Shown piece after piece: positions 23,036 to 41,405 of a stretch of DNA of 64,000 bases; within the stretch, counting starts at the first letter, position 1, and each line of letters opens with the position of its first letter. Source of the stretch: Hymenobacter sp. (lineage in GTDB: Bacteria; Bacteroidota; Bacteroidia; Cytophagales; Hymenobacteraceae); the NCBI GenBank assembly GCA_028288445.1, contig JAQBNT010000286.1, forward strand, positions 57 through 64,056, written 5' to 3'. A program made the translations under genes and the position numbers. Below the pieces are notes generated by a model. The model did not search any database. It worked only from the letters and a program-made list of their open reading frames with translations, and had not been told where the DNA came from.

Positions 23036-23998
23036 ATGGCCGCTCCCGATACCCTGCTTAGTGCCCCGCCACGGGCGGTTGCGGAACGCTGGATGCAGCA
23101 GCTACAGAACGAGCTTTGCCGCCAGCTGACCCTGCTGGATGGGAGTGACGAAGTATTTGAGCACGACGATTGGGAGCACGCCACCGGGCACGGCAGCACC
23201 CGGGTGCTCCAGCACGGCGATGTGCTGGAAAAAGGCGGGGTGGCCTTTTCGGTGTTTTGGGGCGCGCTGGCGGCTGAAACGGCGCGGCAGCTGCGTCTGC
23301 CCAGCCCCACCTGTTTCCTGGCGCGGCTGCACGCGGTGCAGTTTCCGCGCAACCCGTGGGTGCCCATCGCGCATTTGAGCGTGCAGTATGTGGAGGCGGA
23401 GAACGGGGAAGCCTGGTTTGGCGGCAGCCTGGATTTGACGCCGGTGTACGTGGACCGGGCGCAGGCGCACTGGTTTCATGCCCAGCTGGCGGCCCTATGC
23501 CAGGCCCACAACGCCGACTACTACGCCCGGTTCAAGCCGGCGGCCGACAACTACTTTTACCTGCCCCACCGCCAGGCCATGCTGGGCATTGGCGGCCTTT
23601 ATTTCGACCAGCTGGGGGTGAATAAAGACGGCTCCTTTGCCCAGCTTTTTGCCTTTGTCCGGCAGCTGGGCCTCACCTACACCCGGCTCTACAACGTGCT
23701 GGTGCACCAGAATGCCGACCGGCCCTTCAACACCCTCAACAAACGCTGGCAGGTGGTGCGTTGGGGGCATTATGCCGAATTCAGCCTCCTGCTCGACCGC
23801 GATACCCGCCTGGGACTGGCCACAGGCGTTCCGCTCGCAAACACCTTGCTGGGCCTGCCGCCCCAGGCCGAATGGCCCGGCCAGCTGCGCCGGGAACCCA
23901 ACCTGGCCGAAGCCCAGACCCAGCAGTGGCTGCGCCCTGGCGTGAACTGGCTGGCCCCGGACCCGGAGCTGCGGGAAGGCCAACCCTCCGATTCCTGA
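23036..23998 (+). CDS. HemF-like (coproporphyrinogen III oxidase fold) protein with degenerate active site, paralogue 1
   Basis: VLEKGGVAFS, WFGGSLDLTP, YFYLPHR, GIGGLYFD recognisable; H-x-N-x-R is H-L-S-V-Q, RRGRY is RWGHY, DRGT is DRDT. Confidence 0.85.
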   Translation: MAAPDTLLSAPPRAVAERWMQQLQNELCRQLTLLDGSDEVFEHDDWEHATGHGSTRVLQHGDVLEKGGVAFSVFWGALAAETARQLRLPSPTCFLARLHAVQFPRNPWVPIAHLSVQYVEAENGEAWFGGSLDLTPVYVDRAQAHWFHAQLAALCQAHNADYYARFKPAADNYFYLPHRQAMLGIGGLYFDQLGVNKDGSFAQLFAFVRQLGLTYTRLYNVLVHQNADRPFNTLNKRWQVVRWGHYAEFSLLLDRDTRLGLATGVPLANTLLGLPPQAEWPGQLRREPNLAEAQTQQWLRPGVNWLAPDPELREGQPSDS

Positions 23999-24019
23999 AC
24001 CACCTTATCTCCTCCTGCC

Positions 24020-24724
24020 ATGCGCGCGCAAATCTGGTTACCCTGGGTGCTGGCCTCCTCCCTGCTCTGCACCGGCTGCGAAAGCCCTCGAACTGGTGAA
24101 GAAACCGATGCGCCCAGCCGGGCCGTGCCCGTGGCCACGCCGCTGCCCCCTGACACGAGTGGCCGGGCCCACCGCCCACTTCCGCCCGCGCTCCCTCTCG
24201 ACACGGAAGTGGCCGCCGCCTGGACGCGCCTGCAAACCGCCCTGCGGCGGCACGACGCCGCGCAGCTCAACCAGCTCATCGACCCCGCGCTGGGCCTGTG
24301 GGTGGTAGCGGATGGCGACACGGGCTTGGTTATCACGCGGGTGACGGCGGGCACGGCGCTGCGGAAGGCCAGTGCCCGTGCACCGCTGCTGCGCCTGGAG
24401 CAGCAGTTTCAGACGTGCCCCGCGCTGCTGGCTGTGGCCCAGTTTCCGGAAATTGACTGCGGCGACTACGGCCACGGGCGCTCCGGCTTTGCGCGGGATG
24501 GCTGCTTTGCCGGCCCGGCCGCCGACTTTCAGGCCGTGGATGTGTGGTCCCGCGCCCGGCTGGCGGGTGGCACTGCGGCCCAGGGCCGGGCAGCGCAGGC
24601 GCGGGTGGGGCGCACGGTGCTCCATACGCGCAGCGGCTGGCGGTTTCATTTTGCCCAGGCACCGGGCGCGGGCGGGCGCTGGTACCTGGTGTTCGTTGAC
24701 CTGCGCGCGCCCTGCATCAGCTGA
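24020..24724 (+). CDS. hypothetical lipoprotein
   Basis: Signal peptide with lipobox LLCTG-C; 21 bp downstream of hemF-like 1. Confidence 0.75.
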   Translation: MRAQIWLPWVLASSLLCTGCESPRTGEETDAPSRAVPVATPLPPDTSGRAHRPLPPALPLDTEVAAAWTRLQTALRRHDAAQLNQLIDPALGLWVVADGDTGLVITRVTAGTALRKASARAPLLRLEQQFQTCPALLAVAQFPEIDCGDYGHGRSGFARDGCFAGPAADFQAVDVWSRARLAGGTAAQGRAAQARVGRTVLHTRSGWRFHFAQAPGAGGRWYLVFVDLRAPCIS

Positions 24725-24754
24725 AGCGGCCCGCCCGGCCCGCGCGGGGGTCCC

Positions 24755-24821
24755 ATGACCATAATCAGGGGGTTAAACTGATTGGCATCATGCCCGGCGA
24801 CCGGCGATAACAGGAACTTTA
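24755..24821 (+). promoter_or_regulatory. CRP/FNR-type promoter: two boxes plus -7 element
   Basis: ATGAC-CATA-ATCAG (24755), CTGAT-TGGC-ATCAT (24778), GAACTTTA (24814). Confidence 0.8.
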
Positions 24822-24918
24822 GCCCACTTGCTATCGGCGGCGGCCGAGCCGTGCTGCCCGGTTGATACTGGTATTCAAACCAATGTTTTTCAGTCACTTA
24901 TTTTCTTTCTCAGCCGCC

Positions 24919-25215
24919 ATGAAAACAACCACGAAACCGTTTCGAATGCGAAAGCCAGTCCTCCTGCAATGGTCGGCGTTTGGGGCGAGCGTCCTGGCCG
25001 GGCTTACGGCGGGGGTGCTGTGGGCTCCGGCTTCGGGGCAGCACTCCCGCGGCCGGCTGGCCGCCGGCATCCGGGACTGGTCGCGCAGCGTGGCCGGCCG
25101 CTGGAACCTGTGGCAGCCCTGGCCGCTGGCCCGGGCCACCCGGCACCGCGTGCCCAATATTCTGCGCTCCAACGACCTCGCCATGCAGCCCAACCGCCTG
25201 CTGACCGAAGATTGA
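24919..25215 (+). CDS. YtxH-like small protein
   Basis: FGASVLAGLTAGVLWAPASGQHSRGRL resembles the YtxH signature G..AG...G.L.AP..G...R. Confidence 0.65.
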   Translation: MKTTTKPFRMRKPVLLQWSAFGASVLAGLTAGVLWAPASGQHSRGRLAAGIRDWSRSVAGRWNLWQPWPLARATRHRVPNILRSNDLAMQPNRLLTED

Positions 25216-25429
25216 AACCGAGCTACCTCCTTTCCCTCTTGCCATCGAATTCAAAGCGGCCCAACGGCCACTACTCCGGCATGGACGGGCAGTCTGCGAT
25301 GGCTGCCCGCCCTCCGGTAATTACCGCAACGCCGATGTACCCGGCGAGCCACAGCTTCTGGGCGGCCTTCGGCTTTCAGCAAATAAGACTGGCTTTTCTC
25401 CCTTTTTCTGCATTTAACACCCTTGTTCT

Positions 25430-26263
25430 ATGAAACCGGCTTTTGTTGTCCTCACCGATTTATCGGCCGCCGCTGGCGATGCGCAGGCCTACACGGCCCG
25501 TCTGGCCGCCCGCCTGCACGGCTGCATGGTACTGCTGCACGTGTACCTGAACCTGAACCCGCTGCGCGACCCCGAAGAGTTGGTGCTGACCACCGCCGCC
25601 GAGTTGGCCGGCCGCCAGAAAATGCAGACCGACTTGCAGCAGCAGGTGCGCCAACTGCCCGTGCCCGCCGAGGCTGAGCTGTCGTTCGACCCGCTGGCCT
25701 CGGCCGTGGACAAGGCCGTGCGCCGCCACCAGCCGCTGCTGCTGGCCATGGGCCGCGCCGCGCACCCCGGCCGGCTCGACCGCCTGCTGCCCAACGAGGT
25801 GGAGCCCATCCTTCAGGCCACCCACTACCCCCTGCTGCTGGTGCCCGAGGGCTGGGCCGAAACCGAGCTGCCGCAGCGCATGCTGGTGGCCGCCGATGGG
25901 CGCGCCTTCACGCTGGCCGCCCCGGCCCTAGCCCTGCGGGAGCTGCTGCTGACCTTACAGCCCACCACTGCCGTGGCCCACGTAGCCCACGAAACGCACG
26001 GCCCCTCGCACGGCGACGTGGCCCTGAAATCGGTGCTGAGCACGCAGCTATTCGGGCACCTCACCAACAACAGCCTGTATGAAGTGCGCGAGGAAGCCCC
26101 GGCCGACGGCATTCTGCACGCGGCGGCCGAGCTTAACAGCCAGCTGATTGTGATGCTGGCCCGGCCCCACACCTTCCTCGGCGGGGTTTTCCACCGCAGC
26201 GTGACGGCGCAGGTACTGCACCGCAGCCCCGTGCCCGTGCTGGTGCTGCCCACCGTGGCCTGA
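25430..26263 (+). CDS. universal stress protein (tandem USP) 1
   Basis: FVVLTDLS N-terminal strand, PLLLVP, C-terminal FLGGVFHRSVTAQVL..SPVPVLVLP. Confidence 0.92.
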   Translation: MKPAFVVLTDLSAAAGDAQAYTARLAARLHGCMVLLHVYLNLNPLRDPEELVLTTAAELAGRQKMQTDLQQQVRQLPVPAEAELSFDPLASAVDKAVRRHQPLLLAMGRAAHPGRLDRLLPNEVEPILQATHYPLLLVPEGWAETELPQRMLVAADGRAFTLAAPALALRELLLTLQPTTAVAHVAHETHGPSHGDVALKSVLSTQLFGHLTNNSLYEVREEAPADGILHAAAELNSQLIVMLARPHTFLGGVFHRSVTAQVLHRSPVPVLVLPTVA

Positions 26264-26289
26264 GGCTGCGTCACCCTAACTTCTGCCCT

Positions 26290-27228
26290 ATGCTTACGCC
26301 CGTAAAGCCCCATCACCAGCAGCCCCACTCCGTGGAATCGCCCGTGGGGAAAGTCCCGGTTCCTACGCTAATTGTGCTGACCAGTTTTTTCCCGGAAAGC
26401 CGCCGGGCCCTGCGGTTTGCCGCCGAACTGGCCGGCCCGCTGGCGGCCCCGCTGGTGCTGCTGCACATTGATGCGATGGCTGCACAATACCCCAACGTGC
26501 CGATGGCAACCGCGCCCGCCGACCGCCGTGAGCTGCGCCACGACTTGCAGCAGCTCGCCGATGAGTTGCACCGGCCCGCCACCATTGAGCTGGCCAGTGG
26601 GATGCTAAGCCGCGTGTTGGCCGACGCGGCCCACCGCCACGCCCCGGCCCTGTTTGTGCTGGGCCGTCCCGCCGATGAGCAGGCCGATTTTGAGCTGAGC
26701 GAGGCGATGGTGGCCGAGCTGCGCGCCGCCCACCTGCCTCTGCTGCTGGTGCCCGAAGTGTACGCCGGCCCCGACCTGCCCCAGCACCTGGCCGTGGCTT
26801 CCGACGACGAGCCCTTTGCCCTGCACGCCGGGGCGCAGGCCGCCCAGCTCCTGCTGCGCCAGCTGATGCCCAGCCAAGTAACGGTGGTGGCCGCCTCGCC
26901 TTTGCAGGACGACAACGTGTGCGCCGCCGCCCTGCACCACGTCCGCACCAGTGGCCTGCTGCCCACGCCCGGGCCGGTGCCCACCGTGGAGGGCTTTTAC
27001 GCCACCCAAACCGAGCAGGGCCTGCTGCACGCCATTGCCACCACGCAGGCCGACTGGCTGGTGCTGCTGGCCCACCCGCGTCGCTACCTCGACCAGTTGC
27101 TGCACCACAGCATTACGAAACGCATGTTGCGCTGGAGCCCGGTACCGGTGCTGGTGGTGCCCTCCCAAACGGCCCGCAGCCGGCCCTCCAAACGCTCTAC
27201 GCAGCTGAACAACGGCTTCCTTATTTAA
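26290..27228 (+). CDS. universal stress protein 2
   Basis: LIVLTSFF, PLLLVPE, YLDQLLHHSIT..ML..SPVPVLVVP. Confidence 0.9.
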   Translation: MLTPVKPHHQQPHSVESPVGKVPVPTLIVLTSFFPESRRALRFAAELAGPLAAPLVLLHIDAMAAQYPNVPMATAPADRRELRHDLQQLADELHRPATIELASGMLSRVLADAAHRHAPALFVLGRPADEQADFELSEAMVAELRAAHLPLLLVPEVYAGPDLPQHLAVASDDEPFALHAGAQAAQLLLRQLMPSQVTVVAASPLQDDNVCAAALHHVRTSGLLPTPGPVPTVEGFYATQTEQGLLHAIATTQADWLVLLAHPRRYLDQLLHHSITKRMLRWSPVPVLVVPSQTARSRPSKRSTQLNNGFLI

Positions 27229-27271
27229 CAGGAAACAACCAGTATTAAACTAATAATAAACGCCTTAAGCA

Positions 27272-27688
27272 ATGGAATCCATCACCACATCCGCCCCCAA
27301 GATGGCGATAGCCGAAACCACGGCCGCTTTGTCCAATTCAGCGCTCACGCCCTCGGTGGCTGAACGGCTGGCGCAGCTTCTGAGTTCGTCGGTTAATGCC
27401 CAAACCATCTACGGCACGCCCGTGGAGCGCGACAGCGTGACGGTGATTCCCGTGGCGCAGGCGGCCTATGGCTTTGGCGGGGGCAGCGGCACCGGCCCCA
27501 ACGCGCAGGGCGGCACGGGCGGCGGCGGCGGCGTGCGCCTCAAGCCGGTGGGCTTCATCGAGCTGAAAAAAGGCCGCAGCCGCTTCCGGCCCATCCGGCG
27601 CTCGGTAGTCCCGCTGGTGGCCGTGAGCGGGCTGCTGGCACTGCTGCTGCTACGCGCCGTGCCCCGGCTGTTGTCGAACGGCCGCTAG
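27272..27688 (+). CDS. GerW/YtfJ family (spore germination-like) protein
   Basis: IYGTPVERDSVTVIPVAQAAYGFGGGSG...GGGGGV.LKPVGFIE signature. Confidence 0.85.
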   Translation: MESITTSAPKMAIAETTAALSNSALTPSVAERLAQLLSSSVNAQTIYGTPVERDSVTVIPVAQAAYGFGGGSGTGPNAQGGTGGGGGVRLKPVGFIELKKGRSRFRPIRRSVVPLVAVSGLLALLLLRAVPRLLSNGR

Positions 27689-27792
27689 CAGGCGGGGGCT
27701 TGGTTCGGCGGCAGTTTCTACCGGGAGTGCATCGTAAAAAACGGATGTGATTACGGAGATAGTAATGGTCAAGATTGAAATCAGCCATGAGG

Positions 27793-27836
27793 TTGATTCT
27801 CGTCATACTCCGCGCCGAATGGTTTTTCTATTTTTA
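27793..27836 (+). promoter_or_regulatory. CRP/FNR-type promoter: box plus -7 element
   Basis: TTGAT-TCTC-GTCAT (27793), TATTTTTA (27829); weak upstream box AAGAT-TGAA-ATCAG at 27771. Confidence 0.72.
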
Positions 27837-27900
27837 AGAAGCTGCCTGTTGGCCGTTGCGCAGTGGTCGATTTCCACTCATTTTTAACGCCCCTTTCCCC

Positions 27901-28167
27901 ATGAAAAACACCGCGCACCGACAACCGCAAAAGACGACCGAGGATGCTCGGGTCCACCTGACCGGCCTGAGCGCCAAGTACGTGCGCAAGCTGGAAAAGC
28001 CCTTGGTAAACACGCTGCGGAAGCTCAGCCGCAAGTTCAGCAAGCTGCTGGATAAAAACCGCAAGGCCGCCCGCAAGGCCACTCGCGAGGCGGCCAGATT
28101 CCTGGTGAAGCGGCTGTATAAATCCGTGGAGTGGCGCGGCGCTGGCCCGGCCCTGCGGCCGGCCTGA
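27901..28167 (+). CDS. small highly basic hypothetical protein
   Basis: 88 aa, Lys/Arg-rich helical sequence, GC3-biased codons, first gene behind a regulon promoter. Confidence 0.7.
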   Translation: MKNTAHRQPQKTTEDARVHLTGLSAKYVRKLEKPLVNTLRKLSRKFSKLLDKNRKAARKATREAARFLVKRLYKSVEWRGAGPALRPA

Positions 28168-28223
28168 CCCCTACAGGCGTGGGCGCGGCTGCCGTGGTGG
28201 CGCGCCCGGCCCTGCTGCGCGCC

Positions 28224-30239
28224 ATGAACCACTCTCTACTCTACGATTTGCTGGTTATCCTGCTGTTGTCGGTGAGCGTGACGCTGCTGTTCAACCGCAT
28301 CCGGCTGCCGTCCATCATCGGGTTTCTGGTGACGGGGATGCTGGCCGGGCCCTACGCGCTGGGCCTGGTGAAGGTGCCCGCCAAGGTGGACCAGGTCGCC
28401 GAAATGGGCATTATCATGCTCATGTTCACCATCGGGCTGGAGTTTTCGGTGCAGAACCTGGGCCGGATGCGGCGGGCGGTTTTTCTGGGGGGCACGTTGC
28501 AGGTGGGCCTCACGGTGGCGGCTGTGGCGGTGCTGGGCATGGCCATGGGCAGTTCGCTCGGCTCAGCCGTGTTCTGGGGCTTTTTGCTGTCGCTCAGCAG
28601 CACGGCCATTGTGCTCAAGCTGATGCAGGAGCGCATGGAAGTGGAGTCGGTGCACGGGCAGATTGTGCTGGCCATCCTGCTGTTTCAGGATTTGGCGGTG
28701 GTGCCCATGATGCTGCTTATTCCGCTGCTGAGCGGGCAGGGCAGCGGCGGCAACCAATTTCTGGTGCTGGGCCTGATGGTGGCCAAAATCCTGGCCGTGG
28801 TGGCCATGGTGGGGCTGAGCGCGCGCTACCTCATGCCGCGCCTGCTGCTGGCCGTAGCCCGCACCCGCAGCCGCGAGCTGTTCCTGCTCACCATCATCGG
28901 CACCTGTTTGGGCGTGGCCGTGCTCACGGAACAGGCGGGGCTGTCGCTGGCGCTGGGGGCCTTTTTGGCGGGGCTCATCATCTCGGAATCCGAATACAGC
29001 TACGAGGCCGTGAGCAGCGTGCTGCCGTTTCGGGAGGTGTTTGCGAGCTTCTTTTTCGTGTCCATCGGCATGTTGTTCGATGTGCACGTGCTACTGGCCC
29101 ATCCAGTTCAAATCGTGCTGCTCACCATCGGAGTCATCTTGCTTAAAATGCTGCTGACGCCGGTTGCCACGGCCTTTTTGCGCGCGCCGGTGGGCGAAAT
29201 TCTGTTTACCGGCATGGCCCTGGCGCAGGTGGGCGAGTTCGCGTTTGTGCTCTCGCGGGAGGGCCTGCGAGCCGGCCTCATCAGGCCCGATAGCTACCAG
29301 ATTTTCCTCGCTATTTCGGTGCTCACCATGTGCTGCACGCCCGGCGTGATGGCCCTGGCGCGGCCCGTGGTGGCGTGGGTGATGCGCCTGCCGTGGCCCC
29401 TGGAGCTGGAGCAGCGCCTGCACGTGGCACCTGTCCCGCCCCCGCCGGCCGTGGCCACAGCCGGGCCGCCGCTCACCGACCACCTCGTCATCGTGGGCTA
29501 CGGCCTGAACGGGCGCAACCTGGTGCGGGCCGCCAAATTTGCCAAGCTCCCCTACATCATCCTCGAAGCCGACGCCGACAAAGTGCACCGGGGCCTGAAG
29601 CGCGGCGAGCGCATGATGTACGGCGACGTAACCCACGAGCACGTGCTGGAGCACCTGGGCGTGGTACGGGCCCGGGTGGTGATGGTCGCCATCTCCGACC
29701 CCGCCGCCGCGCTGCGGGCCGTGGCCGCCATCCGGCGGCTCAACCCCTTGGTGTGCATTCTGGTGCGCACGCTGTACGTGTACGAACGCAAAAACCTCTA
29801 CCACGTAGGTGCTACCGAGGTAATTGCGCAGGAACAGGAAACCTCCATGGAGGTACTGGCGCACGTGCTGGCCCGTTTTCTGGTGCCGCAGGACGACATC
29901 GAAAAGCTCATCGGCGAGCTGCGGCACGGCAGCCACGCCATGCTGCGGCCCCACTCGCTCACCAAAGCCGCCTGGGCCAGCATTCACCTCGGGCTGACCG
30001 GAGCCGAGTTGGCCGCCGTGCCCGTCGAGGCCGACCCGCAAACCTGCCTGCACGGCCAGGTTTTGTCGGAGGCCGAGCTGCGGCGACGCTTCGGGCTCTG
30101 CCTGCTGGCCATCCGGCGCGACGGCGCGATGCTGGAACCGGTGACGAACGAAACGGCCATTCTCCTGCACGACACGCTCTACGTTTTCGGCAAGCCGGCC
30201 CAGGTAGCGCAGCTGCTACAGGTGGTGGAAGCGGCCTGA
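28224..30239 (+). CDS. CPA2 (KefB/KefC/YbaL-like) cation:proton antiporter with RCK N and C domains
   Basis: AEMGIIMLMFTIGLE, LSLSSTAIV, ILLFQDL, LGAFLAG, FFFVSIG, QVGEFAFV, IVGYGLNG (GxGxxG), C-terminal TrkA-C. Confidence 0.93.
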   Translation: MNHSLLYDLLVILLLSVSVTLLFNRIRLPSIIGFLVTGMLAGPYALGLVKVPAKVDQVAEMGIIMLMFTIGLEFSVQNLGRMRRAVFLGGTLQVGLTVAAVAVLGMAMGSSLGSAVFWGFLLSLSSTAIVLKLMQERMEVESVHGQIVLAILLFQDLAVVPMMLLIPLLSGQGSGGNQFLVLGLMVAKILAVVAMVGLSARYLMPRLLLAVARTRSRELFLLTIIGTCLGVAVLTEQAGLSLALGAFLAGLIISESEYSYEAVSSVLPFREVFASFFFVSIGMLFDVHVLLAHPVQIVLLTIGVILLKMLLTPVATAFLRAPVGEILFTGMALAQVGEFAFVLSREGLRAGLIRPDSYQIFLAISVLTMCCTPGVMALARPVVAWVMRLPWPLELEQRLHVAPVPPPPAVATAGPPLTDHLVIVGYGLNGRNLVRAAKFAKLPYIILEADADKVHRGLKRGERMMYGDVTHEHVLEHLGVVRARVVMVAISDPAAALRAVAAIRRLNPLVCILVRTLYVYERKNLYHVGATEVIAQEQETSMEVLAHVLARFLVPQDDIEKLIGELRHGSHAMLRPHSLTKAAWASIHLGLTGAELAAVPVEADPQTCLHGQVLSEAELRRRFGLCLLAIRRDGAMLEPVTNETAILLHDTLYVFGKPAQVAQLLQVVEAA

Positions 30240-30255
30240 ACAGGGCGCTAAAATC

Positions 30256-31038
30256 CTAAAGCAACCGCAGCTGGTCGACCAGGATTTCCTGCACATCGGT
30301 GGGGCGGATGATGCCGCGGCGGGGGCGGTCCAGCTCCAGCGTGATGAAAACCACCAACGTCACCATCAGGTGGAAGGTGACGATGGCCATCCAGTCGAAC
30401 CGGGCGCGGTTGGCGCTCACGTAGCCCGAAAAAAAGGCCGTGATGAGGGCAATGATGAACAGCATATACATCACGGCATCGGGCACATGCACGCGCAGCG
30501 AGGCTTGGCGGGTCACCCCGTTCACCGTCACTTCGTTCAGTGCATCCACCATTTTATCGGTCGCCATGGCGTACTGCGGGTTGCCCGACAGTCGCACCAC
30601 CCGGTGCCACACCTGGTTGCTGGCCGTATCGGCATGGACCAGCGTGGCCCTGATGGTCGTCGAATCATCGGGGGCCTCGCCGAAGGCAATGCGCGCCTCC
30701 AGGTAGCGGCGCAGCTCCCGCCGGAACCCGGCGCGCTCGGGGTTGGGGTAGAGGTCGGCCCGCAACACCACGGTGCGGAAGCTGGCGGCCAGGGCCACCA
30801 GGGCATCGCGTCGGGCCTCGAAGCGGGCGCTGGCCATCGAAAACGAGAAGGCCAGCAACAAGCCCTGCAACGCCAGCAGCGAAGCCACGGCCACCGACTG
30901 CTCGGTGGTGTTGGTGATGTAGGATTTGCGGCGGCGGCCCTCCCACAAGCCGGCCCAGGTCAGGAGCAGCAGCAGGCCGAAGAGCATGAATACCAGCAGG
31001 CGCGAATCGGTGCGGTACAGCAGTGAATATTCTCTCAT
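30256..31038 (-). CDS. DUF4239-like (bestrophin-like) membrane protein
   Basis: LLALQGLLLAFSFSMASARFEARR, R.ELRRY, TLELDRPRRG motifs; start could be 31131 or 31038. Confidence 0.75.
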   Translation of the reverse strand: MREYSLLYRTDSRLLVFMLFGLLLLLTWAGLWEGRRRKSYITNTTEQSVAVASLLALQGLLLAFSFSMASARFEARRDALVALAASFRTVVLRADLYPNPERAGFRRELRRYLEARIAFGEAPDDSTTIRATLVHADTASNQVWHRVVRLSGNPQYAMATDKMVDALNEVTVNGVTRQASLRVHVPDAVMYMLFIIALITAFFSGYVSANRARFDWMAIVTFHLMVTLVVFITLELDRPRRGIIRPTDVQEILVDQLRLL

Positions 31039-32935: not shown

Positions 32936-32970
32936 TTCCGGGTTTTCACTGCTTATTTTCTTAACGCGCC

Positions 32971-33798: not shown

Positions 33799-33834
33799 AG
33801 GATAGAGTCGGGTGATAAAGAAACGTTAGAAACG

Positions 33835-33929: not shown

Positions 33930-33988
33930 GGGCTATTAGCCCACTTTTTAGCTCTCCTTACTCACCTTTTTTCTGTTGATTCCCTCCC

Positions 33989-34837
33989 ATGGCACCCTCC
34001 ATTCTGGTACTCGCCAATGTGTCGGCCACCGCCGAGCGGGCCGCCCGCTACGCCGCCAGGCTGGGCGCACCTCTGCATGCCAACGTAGTCCTGCTCAACC
34101 TGCTCGCCCTCAATACCTACCCGGTGACGCTAACCCCGGAGCTGGCCGAAATAGAAACCCGGGAAGCCGCGCTGGAACGCAATGAGCGGCTGGAAGGCCT
34201 GTGGTCGATTGCCCGGCAGCTGCCCGGCCTGGCCGTGGTGGAAGAAGCGTCGGGGCCCATGTTCGATGCCGTGACCACGGCCGTGCGGCAGCACCAGTCC
34301 CAGCTGCTGGTGATGGGCCTGAGCCCCGAGCACAGCCTGCTCGACCACTTGCTGCACAACCAGATATTGCCCGTGCTGCGCGCCACGCACCTGCCCCTGC
34401 TGCTGGTACCCGAGGCGGCTCCGCCGCCCGGGCTGCCCCGGCGCGTGCTGCTGGCCCTCGACGGCGCGCCCTTCACGCCCAATGCGGCGGCCCGGCACCT
34501 GGCCCCGCTGCTGGCCGCCTGCCCGGCCACCTTCACCATCGCGCACCTAGCCGAGGACGACGAGCCGCTCGAATTCTCCAACCAGCTGGTGCGGGCCGAG
34601 CTGCGGGCGAGCATGCTCCTGCCCGCCAGCACGTCGGTCGAGCTGTACCAGATAACGAACCAGTCGCCCGCCGACGGCATTCTGCAGGCCAGCTTCGATA
34701 CCCAGGCCGATTTGGTGGTGCTCATTGCCCGGCCGCGCAGTTTTCTGGGGCGGCTGTTTCATCGCAGCGTCACGGCCCAGGTCATCAGCCGCAGCCAGAA
34801 GCCGGTGCTGCTGCTGCCCGCCGAGGAATCGGACTAG
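33989..34837 (+). CDS. universal stress protein 4
   Basis: ILVLANVS, LPLLLVPE, SFLGRLFHRSVTAQVIS.SQKPVLLLP. Confidence 0.92.
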   Translation: MAPSILVLANVSATAERAARYAARLGAPLHANVVLLNLLALNTYPVTLTPELAEIETREAALERNERLEGLWSIARQLPGLAVVEEASGPMFDAVTTAVRQHQSQLLVMGLSPEHSLLDHLLHNQILPVLRATHLPLLLVPEAAPPPGLPRRVLLALDGAPFTPNAAARHLAPLLAACPATFTIAHLAEDDEPLEFSNQLVRAELRASMLLPASTSVELYQITNQSPADGILQASFDTQADLVVLIARPRSFLGRLFHRSVTAQVISRSQKPVLLLPAEESD

Positions 34838-34897
34838 GCCCCGGCCTCCTCTCGCATTGCTTTATTCCGGCAGTATTCACCCCTCACTATTGCTATC

Positions 34898-35152
34898 ATG
34901 AAAACGAAACGCAAATTCACCACTCCCGCCTACGAGCCGGCCACCAAATCCCACGCCGGCACCCCGCACTACGCCGCCTTCGGCAAGGAAACCGATAAAC
35001 AAACGCCCGCCAACCCGGCCCGCGACGCTGCCGCTGCCCTCATTGCCGAAGGCGGCCCCGAAACCAAGCTCCACAAAGCCTACGCCGCTGAAGACCCGCG
35101 CTACGCCGGTGGCGACGTGTTCGACCTGAACAACGAGCAAACAGGCTTATAA
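34898..35152 (+). CDS. small hydrophilic hypothetical protein
   Basis: 84 aa, GC3-biased codons, follows USP4 on the same strand. Confidence 0.7.
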   Translation: MKTKRKFTTPAYEPATKSHAGTPHYAAFGKETDKQTPANPARDAAAALIAEGGPETKLHKAYAAEDPRYAGGDVFDLNNEQTGL

Positions 35153-35246
35153 GCAAGCGGTTCTACCCGAACAGCCGCGGCGCACGCCCGTAAAACCAGG
35201 GCTGGGCCCAGCGCCCTTTGTCCTTTTGAACTAGCCGGCACGCCGC

Positions 35247-36017
35247 GTGCAGTTAGCCGTGAATGAAGGCTCGTTGCTGAACCAGACCGGCTTGTTGACC
35301 CGCTTTGCCGGGCGGTTTTTTCGTGAGCTTTTCCGGCCGGGCTTCGAATGGGCCGAGTTGCTGCGCCAGTGCTTCGCGGTGGGGTATCAGTCGCTGCTGG
35401 TGAGCGTTACGGGATTTATTATGGGCCTGGTCATCACCATGCGGCTGCGGCCCACCATGGTGCAGTTCGGGGCCGAGGCGTGGATTCCGACCATGGTGGG
35501 CATCACCATCATCCGCGAGATGGGGCCCATCATCACGGGCCTGATGGTGGCCGGCAAGGTCAGCTCCAACATCGGGGCCGAGTTGGGCTCGATGCGCGTG
35601 ACCGAGCAGATTGACGCCATGGAAGTTTCGGGCACCAACCCGTTTAAGTACCTGGTGGTGACGCGGGTGGTGGCCACCACGCTCATGGTGCCGGTGCTCT
35701 CCATCCTGGCCGATGCCATCAGCCTGAGCGGGGCTTACCTGGGCGTGCGGCTGCACGGCGACACTTCCTTGCCGCTGTTTATCAACGATGTTTTGAACAA
35801 GCTCACCCTGGCAGCGGTAGCGGAGTCCCTGGTTAAATGCGTCTGCTTCGGCTTCGCCATCGGCCTGGTGGGCTGCTACAAAGGCTACTACGCCACGGAA
35901 GGCACCGAAGGCGTGGGCCGGGCAGCCAATTCCGCCGTAGTAGTCGCGTCGCTCATCGTCTTCGTGCTCGATTTGCTGACCGTTCAACTGAGCACCATCC
36001 TCGGGATTGACAATTGA
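35247..36017 (+). CDS. mlaE: MlaE family ABC transporter permease (orphan)
   Basis: IIREMGPIITGL..AGKV.S.IGAELGSMRVTEQIDAMEV.G..P..YLV..R; EGVG.A...AVV; GTG start uncertain. Confidence 0.9.
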   Translation: MQLAVNEGSLLNQTGLLTRFAGRFFRELFRPGFEWAELLRQCFAVGYQSLLVSVTGFIMGLVITMRLRPTMVQFGAEAWIPTMVGITIIREMGPIITGLMVAGKVSSNIGAELGSMRVTEQIDAMEVSGTNPFKYLVVTRVVATTLMVPVLSILADAISLSGAYLGVRLHGDTSLPLFINDVLNKLTLAAVAESLVKCVCFGFAIGLVGCYKGYYATEGTEGVGRAANSAVVVASLIVFVLDLLTVQLSTILGIDN

Positions 36018-36120
36018 TTGGCGGACCAGTGAATTTTCAGATTAATAAATTGATTTTCAGAGCTAATTACAGCGCGAAATCACGACACTATCAGGAGCAA
36101 ACCCGCTGCTGCCGTGGGCG

Positions 36121-36975
36121 CTACGCCACGGCGGGCAGCACCAGCACGGGCACGGGGCTGGTGCGCAACAAATCAGCCGTTACATCATGGTGAAACAGGT
36201 TGCCGGGGAAGGGATGAGGGCGGGGCATCACCACGAGCAGGTCGGCATCCAGGTCGCTCACGGCGTGCAGCAGGCCCGCCACAGGGCCCACTTCGCGCTC
36301 TTCGTACAAGCTGTTGCCATCCAGCGGCCCGAACAGGCCAGTTTCGCGCACGGATTTCAACGCTTCAGCAGCGCGGGAGGAGCCGTGGGCGTGGGCTGCT
36401 ACGTGCACCACCGTGACGGCGGGGTGCAACCGGGCCAGCACCGGGGCCAGGTCCTGGGTGGCAGCCGTCAGGGCCAGGGGTGCGCCATCGGCCGCTACCA
36501 CCAGGTGGCGCGGGAGTTCCGGCCGGGGCCAGTCTTCGGGCACCAGCAGCACCGGAATGTGGGTGGCGTCCAGGGTCGCGGCCTTGTGCGACTGCGTGAG
36601 CAAATGCGTAAACCAAGCGTGGGCGTGGGCCCGGCCCAGCACCAGCAGCTGTGGGTAGCGGTGGGCCAGCAGGCGGTGAAGCGCCTTGCCCATGGGGGCT
36701 TCCATCAGCTCGGCCTCGGCGGGCACGGGCAGCAGTTGGGCCTCCCGGTTCAGCTCGGCCAGTACGGCGTCGCGGCTGGCCCGGGGGCGGGCATGCATTC
36801 CGGGCTGGCCGAAAGCTGGCCCCGGGGGAAAATCGGTGGGGCCAACGGCGTGGTCTTCGAAGACGTGCAGCAGCAGCACCTGCCCCTCCACCAGCGTGGC
36901 CAGGCGGGTGGTGTAGGCCAGGGCGGCCTCCGCCGCCGCCGAAAAATCGGTCATTACAACAAACGTCGGTTGCAT
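36121..36975 (-). CDS. universal stress protein 5
   Basis: Start at ATG 36975 (MQPTFVVMTDFS); IPVLLVPE; FPGNLFHHDVTADLL..SPVPVLVLP. Confidence 0.92.
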   Translation of the reverse strand: MQPTFVVMTDFSAAAEAALAYTTRLATLVEGQVLLLHVFEDHAVGPTDFPPGPAFGQPGMHARPRASRDAVLAELNREAQLLPVPAEAELMEAPMGKALHRLLAHRYPQLLVLGRAHAHAWFTHLLTQSHKAATLDATHIPVLLVPEDWPRPELPRHLVVAADGAPLALTAATQDLAPVLARLHPAVTVVHVAAHAHGSSRAAEALKSVRETGLFGPLDGNSLYEEREVGPVAGLLHAVSDLDADLLVVMPRPHPFPGNLFHHDVTADLLRTSPVPVLVLPAVA

Positions 36976-37098
36976 AGTGGCAGGGGAAATGGCCCGCGCC
37001 GGGCGGTAATTAAAAACCAGATTGCACGTGTGCAAAAGCGTCGATTCCGGGGCGCTACCGGGGCTGTGCCGACGCTGAATGGCCTGGCAGCAAGGATG

Positions 37099-37142
37099 TA
37101 AAACTGCACCCGTTTGGGGCGGAAAACCATGATTTGCATCAG
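37099..37142 (-). promoter_or_regulatory. CRP/FNR-type promoter of USP5
   Basis: Box ATGAT-TTGC-ATCAG (37129-37142); minus-strand CAGTTTTA at 37106-37099, 22 bp away. Confidence 0.72.
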
Positions 37143-37314
37143 GTAATAGGGCAGTGCTTCGCAGAGGCTCAAAGAACTGAGCAACTGCCCATTCCATAGG
37201 CCGGGTTTGCTTTTCGGCAGATGCTTGTCATCGCCTGCCGCTCGGGCCCTGGCGGCATTGCACGCTGCCCAGCGCCCGGCCGCCTGAACCGTGGGGCAAC
37301 CCAAGCGGCTCCAT

Positions 37315-37380
37315 GTGATTAAAATCAAGCCCCGCCTTGATTAGCGTCAATTTCCTCGCTTGGGCCGGGGTCTACCTTTG
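37315..37380 (+). promoter_or_regulatory. CRP/FNR-type promoter of the kinase-regulator operon (autoregulation)
   Basis: GTGAT-TAAA-ATCAA (37315), TTGAT-TAGC-GTCAA (37337), canonical TACCTTTG (37373). Confidence 0.85.
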
Positions 37381-37579
37381 CGCTGAGCACTCACTCCTGC
37401 TGCGGGCGGGAAGCAAATGGCTTTCTGCTCGCAGCTTTGGGAGAGCTGGATACGATAGAACGGGGCGCTGATTCATGGCTCGAACGGCGGCTCTGTATGG
37501 GAATTAAGCTGAACATTATTGGATTACTGATATATTTATGATTATTGCAAAAACGTAAGGCTCTAGCCTGCGTTTGCAT

Positions 37580-39190
37580 ATGCCGGCCACATTATACCGC
37601 AATCCGCTGACGGACATTCTCTTTGAGCAAAGCAAGGAGTTTGTGGGGCTGTATCATGTCGAACAGGGGTGGTTCACGCACGTCAACACGGCGGGCTACC
37701 GCCTGCTGGGCTACCCCTCGGCGCAGGCCTTGTACGACGAGCCGGCCCGCACGCTGCGCGCCCGGCCCCTGCCCCCAGCCGAATTGGCCGCGCTTCGGGA
37801 ACGGGTATTGCGCGATGGGTCCCACGAGTTTGAGGACGAGATGCGCCGGCAGTCGGGCGAGCTGTTTTGGGCCAGGGTCGAGCTTACCTGCCTCGTGGTT
37901 GGGCAGCAGACCTATTTTCTCGTGCGCCTCACCGACACCACGCCCCTGCACGTAGCCGAGCACCGGCTGGCCGAAAGCATGGGCCGCTTCGAGGCCGTGG
38001 TGAGCCACGCCACCATCGGGATTGTGATGTGCGACCGGGCCGGCGAAATTGTACTGGCCAACGACAAGGCCCAGCAGCTGTTTGGCTATCAGAACGATGA
38101 GCTGATTCATCAGCGCATCGAAGCGCTGGTGCCCGATGCCATGGCCCACTACCTCGGGCAGTTGCGCGAGTCCTTCGACGCCCGCCCCGAAACGCGGGCC
38201 ACGGGCCAGAGCCGCAACCTGCTGGCCCGCCGCCGGGACGGCTCCGAATTCCCCGTGGAAGTCAGTCTGAGCCATTTCCGGCTCGGGGAGGAGCTGTTTG
38301 TGGTGGCTTACGTCATCGACATCACCTTCAAGAAAGAGGCCGAGCGGGAGCTACGGGCCCAGCACCTGCGCGTGGCGCGCCTCAATGCCGAACTGGAGCA
38401 GAAAGTAGCCGACCGCACGCACACCCTGGCCGATACCCTGAGCCAGCTGGAACAGCGCACCCGCGAGCTCACCCAGGCCCTGGCCCTGGAGCAGGAATTG
38501 GGCGAGCTCAAGACGCGCTTCGTGGCCATGGCCTCGCACGAGTTTCGCACCCCGCTCACGGCCGTGCTCACCTCGGTAGCGCTGCTCGAAAAGTACCCCA
38601 GAGCCGAGCAGCAGGCCAAGCGCCAGCGCCATTACGACCGCATTCGGACCTCGGTGATGCACCTGACCGATATTCTGGAGGAGTTTCTGTCGGTGGGCAA
38701 AATGGAGGAAGGCCGCCTGGAGGCGCATCCGGCCCGGCTGGAGCTGGTCCCGCTGGCGCACGAAACCGTGGCCGAAGTGGAGGGCCTGCGCAAGCCCGGC
38801 CAGCACATCATCCTGCAGCTGCCGCCCCTGCCGCCGCTGTGGCAGGATGCGTCGCTGCTGCGCAAAGTGCTGGTCAACCTACTCTCCAACGCCCTGAAGT
38901 ATTCGCACGAAAACACCACCGTCACCGTGCGGGCCACCGCCCAGGACCACGCCCTCTGCCTCGCGGTGCAGGACCAGGGTATGGGCATCGCCCGCGACGA
39001 CCAGACGCGGCTGTTCCAGCGGTTTTACCGGGCCCGCAACGCGGCCAATACGCCCGGTACCGGCCTGGGCCTCTACACCGTGGCCCGCTACGTGGAGCTG
39101 ATGGGCGGCACCATTGCCCTGCACAGCGAGCTGAACGTGGGCACCACCGTCACCATCACGCTTCCCTATGAAAACCATTCTGCTGATTGA
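37580..39190 (+). CDS. cytoplasmic PAS-PAS sensor histidine kinase (FixL-like)
   Basis: Two PAS domains (second ends RRRDGSEFPVEVSLS), HisKA MASHEFRTPL, HATPase NLLSNALKYS/DQGMGI/GTGLGL; no TM helix seen. Confidence 0.95.
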   Translation: MPATLYRNPLTDILFEQSKEFVGLYHVEQGWFTHVNTAGYRLLGYPSAQALYDEPARTLRARPLPPAELAALRERVLRDGSHEFEDEMRRQSGELFWARVELTCLVVGQQTYFLVRLTDTTPLHVAEHRLAESMGRFEAVVSHATIGIVMCDRAGEIVLANDKAQQLFGYQNDELIHQRIEALVPDAMAHYLGQLRESFDARPETRATGQSRNLLARRRDGSEFPVEVSLSHFRLGEELFVVAYVIDITFKKEAERELRAQHLRVARLNAELEQKVADRTHTLADTLSQLEQRTRELTQALALEQELGELKTRFVAMASHEFRTPLTAVLTSVALLEKYPRAEQQAKRQRHYDRIRTSVMHLTDILEEFLSVGKMEEGRLEAHPARLELVPLAHETVAEVEGLRKPGQHIILQLPPLPPLWQDASLLRKVLVNLLSNALKYSHENTTVTVRATAQDHALCLAVQDQGMGIARDDQTRLFQRFYRARNAANTPGTGLGLYTVARYVELMGGTIALHSELNVGTTVTITLPYENHSAD

Positions 39191-40220
39191 GGACAACGAC
39201 ATCCTGCGCGAAAACACGGCCGAAATCTTGGAGCTGGCCGGCTACGCCGTGCTCACGGCCGAAAACGGCAAAGTGGGCGTGGAGAAAGCCTTGGCCACCA
39301 AGCCCGATTTGGTGGTGTGCGACATCATGATGCCCGTGCTGGACGGCTACGGCGTGCTGCACATCTTTAGCCAGAACCCGCCGCTGGCCGGCGTGCCCTT
39401 CATCTTCCTCACCGCCAAAACCGAGCGCACGGACCAGCGCCGCGGCATGGAGCTGGGGGCCGACGACTACCTGACCAAGCCCTTCGAGGAAACCGAGCTG
39501 CTGAGCGCCATCAGCAGCCGCCTCCAGCGCTTCCGGCAGCTGCAGCCCGACTACGACCTGCGCGCCCCCGACGGCTTAGGCAGCTTTCTGGACGATGCCA
39601 CCGCCGTGGCCAGCCTGCACAGCCTCACCCTGGACCGCCGGCCCCACGCGCTGCGCAAAAAGCAGGTGCTTTATGCCGAGGACGAAGAGGCCACCCGGCT
39701 CTATTTTGTGGAGAGTGGGCGGGTGAAAACCGTGCGCCGCACGGCCAGCGGCAAGGAATTAATCACGGGTGTGTATGGCCCCGGCGAGTTTTTCGGCTAC
39801 CTGCCGCTGCTCCAGCACCGGTCGCACAGCGACTCGGCCGTGGTGCTCGATGATGCCCAGGTGCTCTACATTCCGCAGAAGGATTTTGAGCTGCTGCTCC
39901 ATTCGCACCCGGACGTGGGGTGGCAGTTCATCCGGCTGCTGGCCGGCCAGGTAGAAGAGCGGGAACGGCAGCTGCTGGGCATGGCCTACGACTCGTTGCG
40001 CCGCCGCGTGGCCAGCACCCTGCTGCGCCTGCAGGAGCAGGCCGGCAATGGCGCGGCCGCCATCCGGTTCTCGCGCGATGACCTGGCCGCCGTGGTCGGC
40101 ACCACCCCGGAATCGCTCATCCGCACCCTGAGCGAGTTTAAGCAGGACGGCCTGATTGAGCTCACCCCCAAAAGCATTCACGTCCTACAGCCCGACAAGC
40201 TGCACACGCCTAATTGGTAG
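39168..40220 (+). CDS. hybrid response regulator: REC + cNMP-binding + CRP/FNR HTH
   Basis: ILLIEDN, VCDIMMP..DG, FLTAK; CRP domain YFVESGRVK, GPGEFFG; HTH SRDDLAAVVGTTPESLIRTLSEFKQDGLI; overlaps the kinase by 23 bp. Confidence 0.95.
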   Translation: MKTILLIEDNDILRENTAEILELAGYAVLTAENGKVGVEKALATKPDLVVCDIMMPVLDGYGVLHIFSQNPPLAGVPFIFLTAKTERTDQRRGMELGADDYLTKPFEETELLSAISSRLQRFRQLQPDYDLRAPDGLGSFLDDATAVASLHSLTLDRRPHALRKKQVLYAEDEEATRLYFVESGRVKTVRRTASGKELITGVYGPGEFFGYLPLLQHRSHSDSAVVLDDAQVLYIPQKDFELLLHSHPDVGWQFIRLLAGQVEERERQLLGMAYDSLRRRVASTLLRLQEQAGNGAAAIRFSRDDLAAVVGTTPESLIRTLSEFKQDGLIELTPKSIHVLQPDKLHTPNW

Positions 40221-40264
40221 CGGCTGAACTGGCTTTGCGAAACCGGCTGGACCGAATAGCAAAC

Positions 40265-40330
40265 CTGACAGGAATCATCCTGCAAGGTGATACGCGTCAG
40301 GGTGGTATTAGCGCAAAGGCAGGAGCTTTG
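40265..40330 (+). promoter_or_regulatory. CRP/FNR-type promoter: two boxes plus -7 element
   Basis: CTGAC-AGGA-ATCAT (40265), GTGAT-ACGC-GTCAG (40287), GAGCTTTG (40323). Confidence 0.82.
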
Positions 40331-40466
40331 CCCAATTAACCGGCGGTGCTGATTACCTAGTATGGTTTACCTAGTATGGTCCGCAGGCTCTGGCCCCCGG
40401 TTTGGTGGGGTTGGCTGGCGGGGCTTCTCGCAGTTTCTGTTACCATCATAAGTGCATTGAGCAGCC

Positions 40467-41405
40467 ATGAAACAGCAGGCTATTTCGACATCGGCTTTTA
40501 CGCCGCGCCCGGAGGTCGAGAATTGGATGCGGGAATTCCAGGACTGGCTATGCCACCGACTGGAGCTGGCGGATGGCGGCAGCCGGTTTGTGCACGAAGA
40601 ATGGACGCACCCCGGCGGCGGTGGGGGAATCACCTCCACGCTTCAGCACGGGGCCGTGCTGGAGAAGGCGGGCGTGTCCTTTTCGGCCGTGTGGGACCAG
40701 CTGAGCGAGCCGATGGCCCGCCAGCTCCAGGTGAAAGACCGGCACTACTACACCGCTGATGTGAACGTGGGCCTGCATCCGCACAGCCCCATGGTGCCCA
40801 TTTCGCATCTCAACGTGCGGTATTTCGAAGCCCGCACGGGCGAGGCCTGGTTTGCCGGCAGCCTGGACCTGACCCCGGTTTACGTGGATGTGGTGCAGGC
40901 CCGCTGGTTTCACGAGCAGATTCGGGCTATGTGCCACCGCCACGATACCGGCTACTACCCGCGCTTCAAAGCCGGGGCCGATGCCCATTTCTACCTGCCC
41001 CACCGGGGCGAAACGCGGGGCGTGGGCGGCCTGTATTTCGAGCAGCTTATGGTGGAGCGCGACGGCTTGTTTGAGGAGCTGCTGGCCTTCGTGCAGGACG
41101 TGGGCGAGGTGTACGGCCGCGCCTACGGCACCATCATGCGCCAGAATGCCCACCTGCCCTACGCCGCGCCCGAGAAGCGCTGGCAGCAGCAGCGCCGCGC
41201 CCGCTGCGCCGAATTCAACCTGACCGTGGACCACCCCAGCCGCTTCGAGCTGGCCGCCCACGGCCCGGAAGGTTTCGTCCTCAGCCTACCTCCACGGGCC
41301 GAGTGGCACAATGCCCCTGCTCCCGCCCCCGACTCGGCCGAAGCCCGGACCCAGCAATGGCTGCGCCCCGGCGTGGACTGGATAACGCCCACCGGCGCGG
41401 CCTGA
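40467..41405 (+). CDS. HemF-like protein with degenerate active site, paralogue 2
   Basis: GGGGG, VLEKAGVSFS, LHPHSPMVPISHLNVRYFE, RGETRGVGGL kept; GVS is DVN, RRGRYVEF is RRARCAEF, DRGT.FGL is DHPSRFEL. Confidence 0.87.
   Translation: MKQQAISTSAFTPRPEVENWMREFQDWLCHRLELADGGSRFVHEEWTHPGGGGGITSTLQHGAVLEKAGVSFSAVWDQLSEPMARQLQVKDRHYYTADVNVGLHPHSPMVPISHLNVRYFEARTGEAWFAGSLDLTPVYVDVVQARWFHEQIRAMCHRHDTGYYPRFKAGADAHFYLPHRGETRGVGGLYFEQLMVERDGLFEELLAFVQDVGEVYGRAYGTIMRQNAHLPYAAPEKRWQQQRRARCAEFNLTVDHPSRFELAAHGPEGFVLSLPPRAEWHNAPAPAPDSAEARTQQWLRPGVDWITPTGAA

Follow-up and report, generated by a model that had tools for sequence, protein, structure and literature searches.

Two divergent HemF paralogues, apparently maintained, behind paired Crp/Fnr-type operators in a Hymenobacter stress island

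A 64,000-nucleotide stretch of the genome of Hymenobacter sp. (GenBank assembly GCA_028288445.1, contig JAQBNT010000286.1, positions 57 to 64,056 of the forward strand), here called the window, contains two genes for divergent members of the HemF family, the oxygen-dependent coproporphyrinogen oxidases (CPOs). The two open reading frames (ORFs), P1 and P2, are located as follows:

23036..23998, forward strand: P1 (HemF-like 1), 320 aa, intact, full-length PF01218
40467..41405, forward strand: P2 (HemF-like 2), 312 aa, intact, full-length PF01218

The two proteins are 49% identical to each other and score 263.6 bits (P1) and 287.1 bits (P2) against the Pfam model Coprogen_oxidas (PF01218; cut-off 31.8), covering the profile from position 2 or 3 to position 295 of 295. 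Their GC content at third codon positions (GC3), 0.81-0.83, resembles that of the neighbour genes. The statement of an earlier note on this DNA, that both ORFs are full length with normal codon bias, is therefore borne out. On the NCBIfam equivalog model NF003727, however, P1 (249.5 bits) and P2 (266.2 bits) both fall below the cut-off of 297 bits, whereas the canonical HemF proteins of the same genome, P0124 and P0125, reach 375.2 and 363.5 bits, respectively. In a database search, the nearest proteins to the ORFs of the window came from H. segetis, H. terrigena and H. armeniacus.

The assembly examined comprises 5.49 Mb in 311 contigs and is 92.8% complete. Four PF01218 genes are present in it: P1, P2 and two canonical hemF genes, which encode HemF-A (P0124, contig C228, 384.5 bits on PF01218) and HemF-B (P0125, contig C28, 373 bits). 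Canonical hemF does exist elsewhere in the genome, as the earlier note had supposed, and in two copies; about half of Hymenobacter genomes likewise hold two canonical hemF genes. No hemN was found in this 92.8%-complete assembly, where the top TIGR00538 match is a HemW-like radical SAM protein with 123 bits against a cut-off of 325. With hemN missing from this incomplete assembly, HemF would be the sole route from coproporphyrinogen to protoporphyrinogen.

P1 and P2 were compared with other HemF proteins in a MAFFT alignment of 154 homologues that includes E. coli HemF (P0123, from NC_000913), and every motif change listed in the earlier note was found in it. At 124 columns that are at least 93% conserved, P1 deviates 28 times and P2 20 times; typical canonical sequences deviate 0-5 times. 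We also scored 28 active-site and landmark columns in 139 canonical Hymenobacter HemFs: 25 of the 28 are 100% invariant, 27 are at least 95% conserved and the remaining one is 82% conserved. Residues are given here in human CPOX numbers, which equal the E. coli numbers plus 152. The offset was checked at CPOX N260, R262, R332, R389, R391 and R401, which correspond to E. coli N108, R110, R180, R237, R239 and R249. For the GGRTES segment the offset to the human sequence is 153.

The replacements in P1 are S244H, H248F, N260S, R262Q, G280S, W318A, E330A, R332L, R389W, R391H and G402D. In P2 they are S244N, G280S, W318G, Y392C, R401H, G402P, T403S and G406E. The GGRTES motif reads GVPLAN in P1 and HG-PEG in P2. 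Thus, at the recognition and kinetic sites S244, N260, R262 and R332 (E. coli S92, N108, R110 and R180), P1 carries H, S, Q and L, and P2 carries N at the first and is unchanged at the other three. The canonical active-site loop is D400-R401-G402-T403, with G406 close by (E. coli 248-251 and 254). P1 keeps R401 and G406, its loop reading D-R-D-T. P2 has the loop D-H-P-S and a glutamate at 406, and its arginine cage is intact (equivalents of R262, R328, R332, R388, R389 and R391), with N260 also kept. The losses at S244, G280, W318 and G402 are common to both proteins. So is the retention of H258, D282, H327, R328, R388, D400 and the C-terminal Trp (E. coli W274). His258 and Asp282 (E. coli H106 and D130) are kept in all members of the clade described below, except for Q at 258 in P0117. 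The earlier note had spoken of broken catalytic motifs; the motif changes are real, but the equivalents of His258 and Asp282 survive in both proteins. To judge from the sequences, the alteration would concern substrate recognition in the case of P1 and, in P2, the loop that serves as lid or for retention, and the residues for the chemistry would survive.

Many of these replacements are fixed. F248, S280, A318, L332, W389 and H391 occur in six of six P1-clade sequences, including a 64%-identical member, and S280, P402 and E406 in seven of seven P2-clade sequences. Position 244 varies within both clades, and position 401 varies within the P2 clade. The change of R to H in the D-H-P-S loop, which the earlier note listed, is therefore present in P2 but not clade-wide, the orthologues having R, Q, C or H.

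These residues were assessed against a preprint on a deep mutational scan of human CPOX (10.64898/2026.07.02.735896). According to that preprint, Ser244, His258, Asn260, Asp282, Arg332, Asp400, Gly402 and Gly406 are intolerant and substitutions at Arg262 are mostly null-like. Arg328, Arg389 (R389W 0.84), Arg401 and Lys404 are tolerant, and intermediate scores are given for R391H (0.55) and N260S (0.46-0.59). By this yardstick, which concerns the human enzyme assayed in yeast with single substitutions, the damaging replacements number at least four in P1 (S244, R262, R332 and G402), with N260S as a partial one in addition, and three in P2 (S244, G402 and G406). Replacements at such sites argue, though indirectly, against standard CPO activity, and we infer that this activity has been lost.

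One alternative is that P1 and P2 are genuine O2-dependent CPOs, namely isozymes induced by stress or low O2 whose kinetics (O2 or substrate affinity) have been tuned. Hypoxia-induced HEM13 in yeast and Anr-induced hemF in Pseudomonas would be analogues. A full-length PF01218 domain with a CPO fold, the retained catalytic His and Asp, D400 and W274 equivalent, the complete arginine cage and N260 of P2, an organism in which no HemN was found, and the usual presence of canonical HemF-A in the same type of island are all in line with this alternative. We nevertheless regard it as rather unlikely. First, the sites replaced in P2 (S244, G402 and G406) and in P1 (S244, N260, R262, R332 and G402) are 100% invariant in the 139 canonical proteins and intolerant in the scan. 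Second, both proteins score below the equivalog cut-off. Third, canonical HemF-A, which is of the island type, and HemF-B are already present in the genome.

The predicted structures are those of CPOs. AlphaFold2, run with a 96-sequence alignment, gave a mean predicted local distance difference test score (pLDDT) of 91.3 for P1 and 90.2 for P2, with a predicted TM-score (pTM) of about 0.9. The sole soft internal region is the former active-site loop, with a pLDDT of 66-70 at residues 250-270 of P2. In a Foldseek search of the PDB, the top matches were all CPOs, 2qt8, 2aex, 1tkl and 8t7w among them (E about 1e-23), with TM-scores of 0.8-0.9 for P1 and 0.84-0.93 for P2. The next matches after the CPOs were the bilin reductases PcyA and PebB, then RCCR; a structural kinship between CPOs and bilin reductases is already in the literature (PMC10151467).

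The divergent proteins form a small family. By database search, the P1 group includes proteins of H. segetis (88% identity) and H. terrigena (80%) and two metagenome proteins (81% and 64%). The P2 group includes proteins of H. terrigena (85%), H. armeniacus (72%) and strain DH14 (67%) and one Logan protein, with P0154 of H. convexus as a more distant member. All other database homologues are canonical HemF. Among 165 Hymenobacter species genomes, full-length divergent copies were found only in G053 (both P1 and P2), G079, G010 and G111, the last being the H. convexus genome. In total, at least 12 intact divergent ORFs exist, down to 56-64% identity, and intact orthologues are present in G053, G079, G010, H. 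segetis, H. terrigena, H. armeniacus and strain DH14. In the maximum-likelihood tree, the divergent sequences (about 12) constitute one clade with SH-aLRT support of 97. This clade is nested in a large canonical 'type A' group of Hymenobacter HemFs that end in the QQWLRPG tail. Separate from this group is a deep clade of the housekeeping-like 'type B', to which P0125 belongs. The stem branches are long (0.44-0.73) and the branches within the clade short, so that long-branch attraction is a partial caveat to the placement in a single clade; the shared derived G280S and the loss of W318 in both P1 and P2 would fit that placement. The QQWLRPG tail was rejected as a marker of the family. The earlier note had taken the tail QTQQWLRPGV.W for a mark of the pair, but it is the general consensus of canonical type-A HemFs, including the P0124 of this very genome.

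Another proposal of the earlier note was that the lesions of P1 and P2 complement each other in a heterodimer. More broadly, non-catalytic P1 and P2 might pair with each other, or with HemF-A or HemF-B so as to inhibit or modulate them. HemF is a homodimer, the fold is kept and the equivalent of W274, which is reportedly needed for dimerisation of E. coli HemF, is invariant in all members. However, S244, G280, W318 and G402 are lost in both proteins, at least two species (G079 and G010) have P2 but no P1, and each active site of the CPOX homodimer lies within a single chain according to the preprint (10.64898/2026.07.02.735896), all of which makes mutual complementation improbable. Moreover, inhibition of CPO during O2 shortage in the absence of HemN would bring no obvious benefit. 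Heterodimer complementation was therefore rejected as the leading idea, and heterodimerisation in general appears quite unlikely.

Selection was estimated from pairwise ratios of nonsynonymous to synonymous substitution (dN/dS, omega) by the NG86 method with codon bootstrap. Between this genome (G000) and G053, omega is 0.19 (0.12-0.30) for P1 and 0.15 (0.09-0.23) for P2; between G000 and G079 it is 0.19 (0.11-0.32) for P2. Canonical HemF gives 0.06-0.07 (type B) and 0.10 (type A), and the island neighbour genes give 0.12-0.33. Since the values of 0.15-0.19 have bootstrap intervals that exclude 1, P1 and P2 are under purifying selection and not decaying; omega is not near 1 and the orthologues are free of frameshifts, which answers the earlier concern about simple decay. 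It might still be argued that P1 and P2 are redundant duplicates in slow decay after an island duplication, with stops not yet acquired. In favour of this are the long stem branches, an omega 2-3 times that of the canonical copies, the patchy distribution with P1 absent from G079, a decayed extra copy in G009 and a truncated regulator beside the H. convexus copy. But the omega values match those of functional neighbours, at least 12 ORFs are intact, many replacements are clade-fixed and the upstream operators described below are conserved. We consider slow decay very unlikely, and simple decay was rejected on the evidence of omega, the fixed replacements and the conserved operators. Of the 'maintained pseudoenzyme family' of the earlier note, a single maintained clade with dN/dS of 0.15-0.19 stands; the word pseudoenzyme does not follow, in view of the retained His/Asp pair and the HemF2 precedent discussed below.

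Both genes are preceded by candidate operators of the form TGAY-N4-RTCA, a TGA-N6-TCA core as in Fnr and Crp sites. The window contains 13 such sites against 1.2 expected (about 10-fold), no shuffle gave 13, and 12 of the 13 fall between island genes. The boxes that matter here are as follows:

22794..22856, forward strand: P1 operator region with the strict boxes TGATTTTCGTCA (22794-22805) and TGATACTAGTCA (22845-22856)
22823-22834, forward strand: degenerate P1 box TGAACTACATCA, 22 bp ahead of the strict box at 22845
24756..24790, forward strand: Usp-operon operator pair, boxes at 24756 and 24779, upstream of the tandem-Usp operon
27794, 31286, 37130 and 46115: single TGAY-N4-RTCA boxes found by the pattern scan
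37316..37349, forward strand: kinase operator pair TGATTAAAATCA and TGATTAGCGTCA, 22 bp apart, between a divergent Usp gene and the kinase
40266..40299, forward strand: P2 operator pair TGACAGGAATCA and TGATACGCGTCA, 22 bp apart, about 180-200 bp upstream of P2

Paired boxes 22-23 bp apart are thus found upstream of P1, the Usp operon, the kinase and P2. Genome-wide there are only six close box pairs: four in this island and one each on contigs C116 and C256, and the contig of the window has the highest box density in the genome. The pairs on C116 and C256 precede two paralogous kinase-regulator pairs, a layout that recurs in G053 and G066. In the upstream alignment of four species, both P2 boxes are conserved islands. 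The P1 box pair is conserved in two species: the 22823/22845 pair lies in a block shared with the orthologous upstream region of G053, where the 22794 box is not conserved. The claim of the earlier note that both genes head regulon operons is well founded, P1 leading a unit with a lipoprotein gene and P2 a unit with pfkB. No strict operator was found directly upstream of canonical HemF-A in the loci examined, and direct operator control appears, on this sequence evidence, to be specific to the divergent copies.

A possible source of this control is encoded immediately before P2:

37574..39190, forward strand: PAS-PAS histidine kinase (HK), the second PAS of which resembles the heme-PAS of FixL, EcDos and DosP
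39168..40220, forward strand: response regulator (RR) with a REC domain, a cyclic nucleoside monophosphate (cNMP)-binding-like domain and a Crp/FixK-type helix-turn-helix (HTH), the C-terminal half matching FixK and CRP models

The second PAS of the kinase (window 37980-38280, residues about 139-260) matches its structural relatives with E values of 5e-11 to 1e-7, that for FixL (1d06) being 5e-11. Its candidate His, the only one nearby, aligns two residues before the proximal His of FixL. O2 or heme is thus a plausible signal for the kinase. The O2-linked regulon of the earlier note is made plausible by the FixL/DosP-like PAS and the FixK/CRP-like half but weakened by a proximal His that is out of register. 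The REC-Crp protein is the presumed binder of the TGAY-N4-RTCA boxes, the box pair at 37316 and 37338 is probably an autoregulatory site, and control of P1 and P2 probably lies with this FixL-like PAS kinase and REC-Crp/FixK regulator encoded next to P2. There are three paralogous PAS-kinase/REC-Crp pairs in the genome (on C116, on C256 and in the window at 37316-40220), with regulators 70-79% identical, and members of the regulator family are found in 120 of 165 Hymenobacter genomes, which often have two or three of them. This PAS-kinase/REC-Crp family is apparently uncharacterised, and our literature search returned no papers on a Hymenobacter Usp/Crp regulon.

The island extends over about 22.7-46.2 kb of the window. 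It encodes seven tandem-Usp proteins, a six-BON protein, a KefB-like exchanger, a bestrophin-like protein, MlaE, a YtfJ-like protein, a PfkB hexose kinase and an amidohydrolase in addition to the PAS-PAS kinase and the REC-cNMP-HTH_Crp regulator. The two genes that directly follow P1 and P2 are:

24020..24724, forward strand: predicted lipoprotein with lipobox LLCTGC and no family match, starting 21 nt after P1
41460..42416, forward strand: PfkB-family hexose kinase (1-PFK / PFK-II subfamily), 55 nt downstream of P2

The lipoprotein gene, which is syntenic in G053, is probably co-operonic with P1. A 52%-identical paralogue of it follows canonical HemF-A on C228 in the same genome, and because of this P1 and the lipoprotein can be viewed as a duplicated two-gene module. 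This suggests that the lipoprotein may be a conserved partner of HemF. Around P2, the order HK-RR-P2-PfkB is kept in G053, G079, G010 and G111.

Three further observations were made on these islands. The longest ORF of the Usp gene at 36121-37197 (reverse strand) begins with about 75 extra residues, and the operator box 37130-37141 falls within this N-terminal extension; the true start probably lies further downstream. At the island end, the amidohydrolase-family gene at 44297-45847 (reverse strand) has a signal-like N-terminus and the operator box at 46115 upstream. Finally, a G/T-rich tandem repeat array of about 17 bp units (GGTGGAGGGTGTTTTGG-like) is located on C228 at about 48.79-49.15 kb, upstream of the Usp/HemF-A operon.

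Canonical HemF also seems to be a regular member of the Hymenobacter stress island. In about 50 genomes, it lies on the same contig as a REC-Crp regulator, about 10-30 kb away and mostly at 11-17 kb; these distances come from coordinates compared by eye, with three loci fetched as a check. In G066, a canonical type-A HemF is directly adjacent to the kinase-regulator pair. Wherever a divergent copy occurs, the species has two islands: in one, canonical HemF-A lies near a paralogous HK-RR pair, and the other contains P2. The simplest history is that canonical HemF is old in the regulon, much as CPO genes belong to other low-oxygen regulons, and that island duplication and remodelling came later. 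Hymenobacter stress islands contain a PAS kinase, a REC-Crp/FixK regulator, many tandem Usp genes and BON proteins and, as a rule, a canonical type-A HemF. The island or its modules would have been duplicated in one Hymenobacter subclade, and the redundant HemF copies may then have gone through a burst of change, followed by purifying selection and direct control by paired Crp/Fnr-type operators.

The above observations are best accommodated, with a probability of roughly 0.55, by the reading that P1 and P2 are non-standard HemF paralogues that have been neofunctionalised and maintained, neither standard CPO isozymes nor decaying genes. Within this reading, a binder and an enzyme with an altered substrate appear about equally probable.

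Several points weigh against it. The family is small and patchy, P1 being present in two of 165 species representatives and missing from the close relative G079, and selection on P1 and P2 is relaxed 2-3-fold relative to canonical HemF. G009 has a decayed canonical-type extra HemF adjoining Usp and BON genes (C9:877.9-878.4 kb). This HemF is interrupted by stop codons and lacks about 130 internal residues (roughly residues 110-238); an extra copy of this kind is evidently dispensable. In H. convexus (G111:C14), the REC-Crp gene beside P0154 is cut to about 180 codons, and no strict box was found upstream of P0154. The truncated regulator has lost its DNA-binding part, and the module may be degenerating there. 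It is also possible that the residue combinations of P1 and P2 compensate for one another, and real CPO activity, especially in P2, could have survived along with His258 and Asp282. Lastly, the case for an O2 signal is made from PAS similarity alone, with the proximal His out of register.

If P1 and P2 are neofunctionalised paralogues, their pocket would have been rebuilt rather than destroyed. Since the CPO fold, the W274 equivalent and the catalytic His and Asp are kept, the old pocket would still accommodate a tetrapyrrole. P2 would offer a full arginine cage for a tetra-propionate ligand under a rebuilt, probably floppy lid loop, with S244 gone. This loop would correspond to that of human CPOX which retains harderoporphyrinogen for the second decarboxylation. 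P2 is then most likely a binder of coproporphyrinogen or harderoporphyrinogen, or else a slow or partial decarboxylase. In P1, four arginines, N260 and S244 have become Q, L, W, H, S and H, and the pocket is expected to be less cationic and more hydrophobic. The most likely preference of P1 would be for a less carboxylated tetrapyrrole (protoporphyrinogen, protoporphyrin or heme), as ligand or as new substrate. Synthesis of both proteins would follow activation of the regulon by the kinase and regulator, with O2 limitation as the probable trigger. With no HemN to take over, the O2-dependent steps would then stall and porphyrinogens would accumulate, which P1 and P2 could hold or re-route.

One version of this mechanism, which we put forward tentatively, is that P1 and P2 are the first HemF-derived tetrapyrrole carriers or sequestering proteins, a counterpart of HemW from the oxygen-dependent family, which a heme-PAS kinase and REC-FixK regulator would induce at low O2 in an obligate aerobe lacking HemN. 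Porphyrinogens with four or three carboxylates would be held by P2, and protoporphyrin(ogen) or heme by P1, whose fixed His (R391 site) and Trp (R389 site) are possible ligand contacts. Such carriers might prevent a phototoxic build-up of porphyrin on re-aeration, or route heme to sensor and respiratory proteins. Sequestration or chaperoning, which the earlier note had proposed for O2 limitation, is a reasonable hypothesis. We found no papers on HemF-like pseudoenzymes.

To our knowledge, HemF has been treated as a family with one function, tolyporphin HemF2 being the sole known exception. If our reading is correct, the CPO pocket has been remodelled a second time, independently of HemF2 and within a stress regulon instead of a pigment cluster, and the CPO fold would be more adaptable than assumed. 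The two proteins would also constitute a natural experiment on the pocket residues that set propionate recognition. In addition, a widespread Hymenobacter regulon is exposed, consisting of a PAS kinase, a REC-Crp fusion, paired operators, tandem Usp and canonical HemF. It would link the handling of heme precursors to a response resembling dormancy, in aerobes that tolerate radiation and desiccation. A practical consequence concerns annotation. The database names of these proteins are coproporphyrinogen oxidase, in some cases 'oxygen-dependent coproporphyrinogen oxidase'; since residues invariant in real HemFs are missing under this label, pathway reconstructions would miscount such proteins.

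Comparison with known systems may provide some clues to what P1 and P2 do. They share with canonical HemF / CgdC the domain over its full length, the predicted fold, His258, Asp282, D400 and the C-terminal Trp. They differ from it in the replacement of S244, N260, R262, R332, R389, R391 and G402 in P1 and of S244, G402, T403, G406 and GGRTES in P2. They differ as well in their sub-cut-off scores, their long branches, their occurrence in addition to two canonical copies and the paired operators directly upstream.

The closest precedent comes from the tolyporphin pathway: HemF2 (Ushimaru et al. 2023, as described in PMC10548856 and PMC10459692), a divergent HemF beside a canonical one, whose new substrate, protoporphyrinogen IX, has fewer propionates. 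HemF2 is likewise a retained divergent paralogue with a remodelled pocket, and the loss of arginines in P1 points the same way. HemF2 belongs to a cyanobacterial secondary-metabolite cluster with TolI, P450s and duplicated heme genes, whereas P1 and P2 lie in a Bacteroidota stress regulon. No tol-type cluster was found around P1 and P2, the neighbours being Usp, BON, KefB-like, PfkB, HK, RR and lipoprotein genes.

HemW is a radical SAM paralogue of the HemN family that acts as a heme chaperone; it has lost CPO activity but kept tetrapyrrole binding, and was long misannotated. By analogy, this fate of a CPO paralogue may lend some plausibility to a binder or chaperone role for P1 and P2. However, HemW is of an unrelated fold and family and is widespread, whereas the P1/P2 clade is limited to a few Hymenobacter species.

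As regards regulation, the FixL-FixJ-FixK and Anr/Fnr regulons share with the island a heme-PAS-like kinase, a FixK/CRP-like module, TGA-N6-TCA operators and a gene of a CPO family. In contrast to those regulons, REC and Crp/FixK are fused here in a single protein, the CPO-family members are divergent HemFs rather than HemN, and the proximal His is shifted by two residues. Finally, an island regulon dominated by tandem Usp, BON, KefB-like and PfkB proteins resembles the mycobacterial DosR dormancy set.

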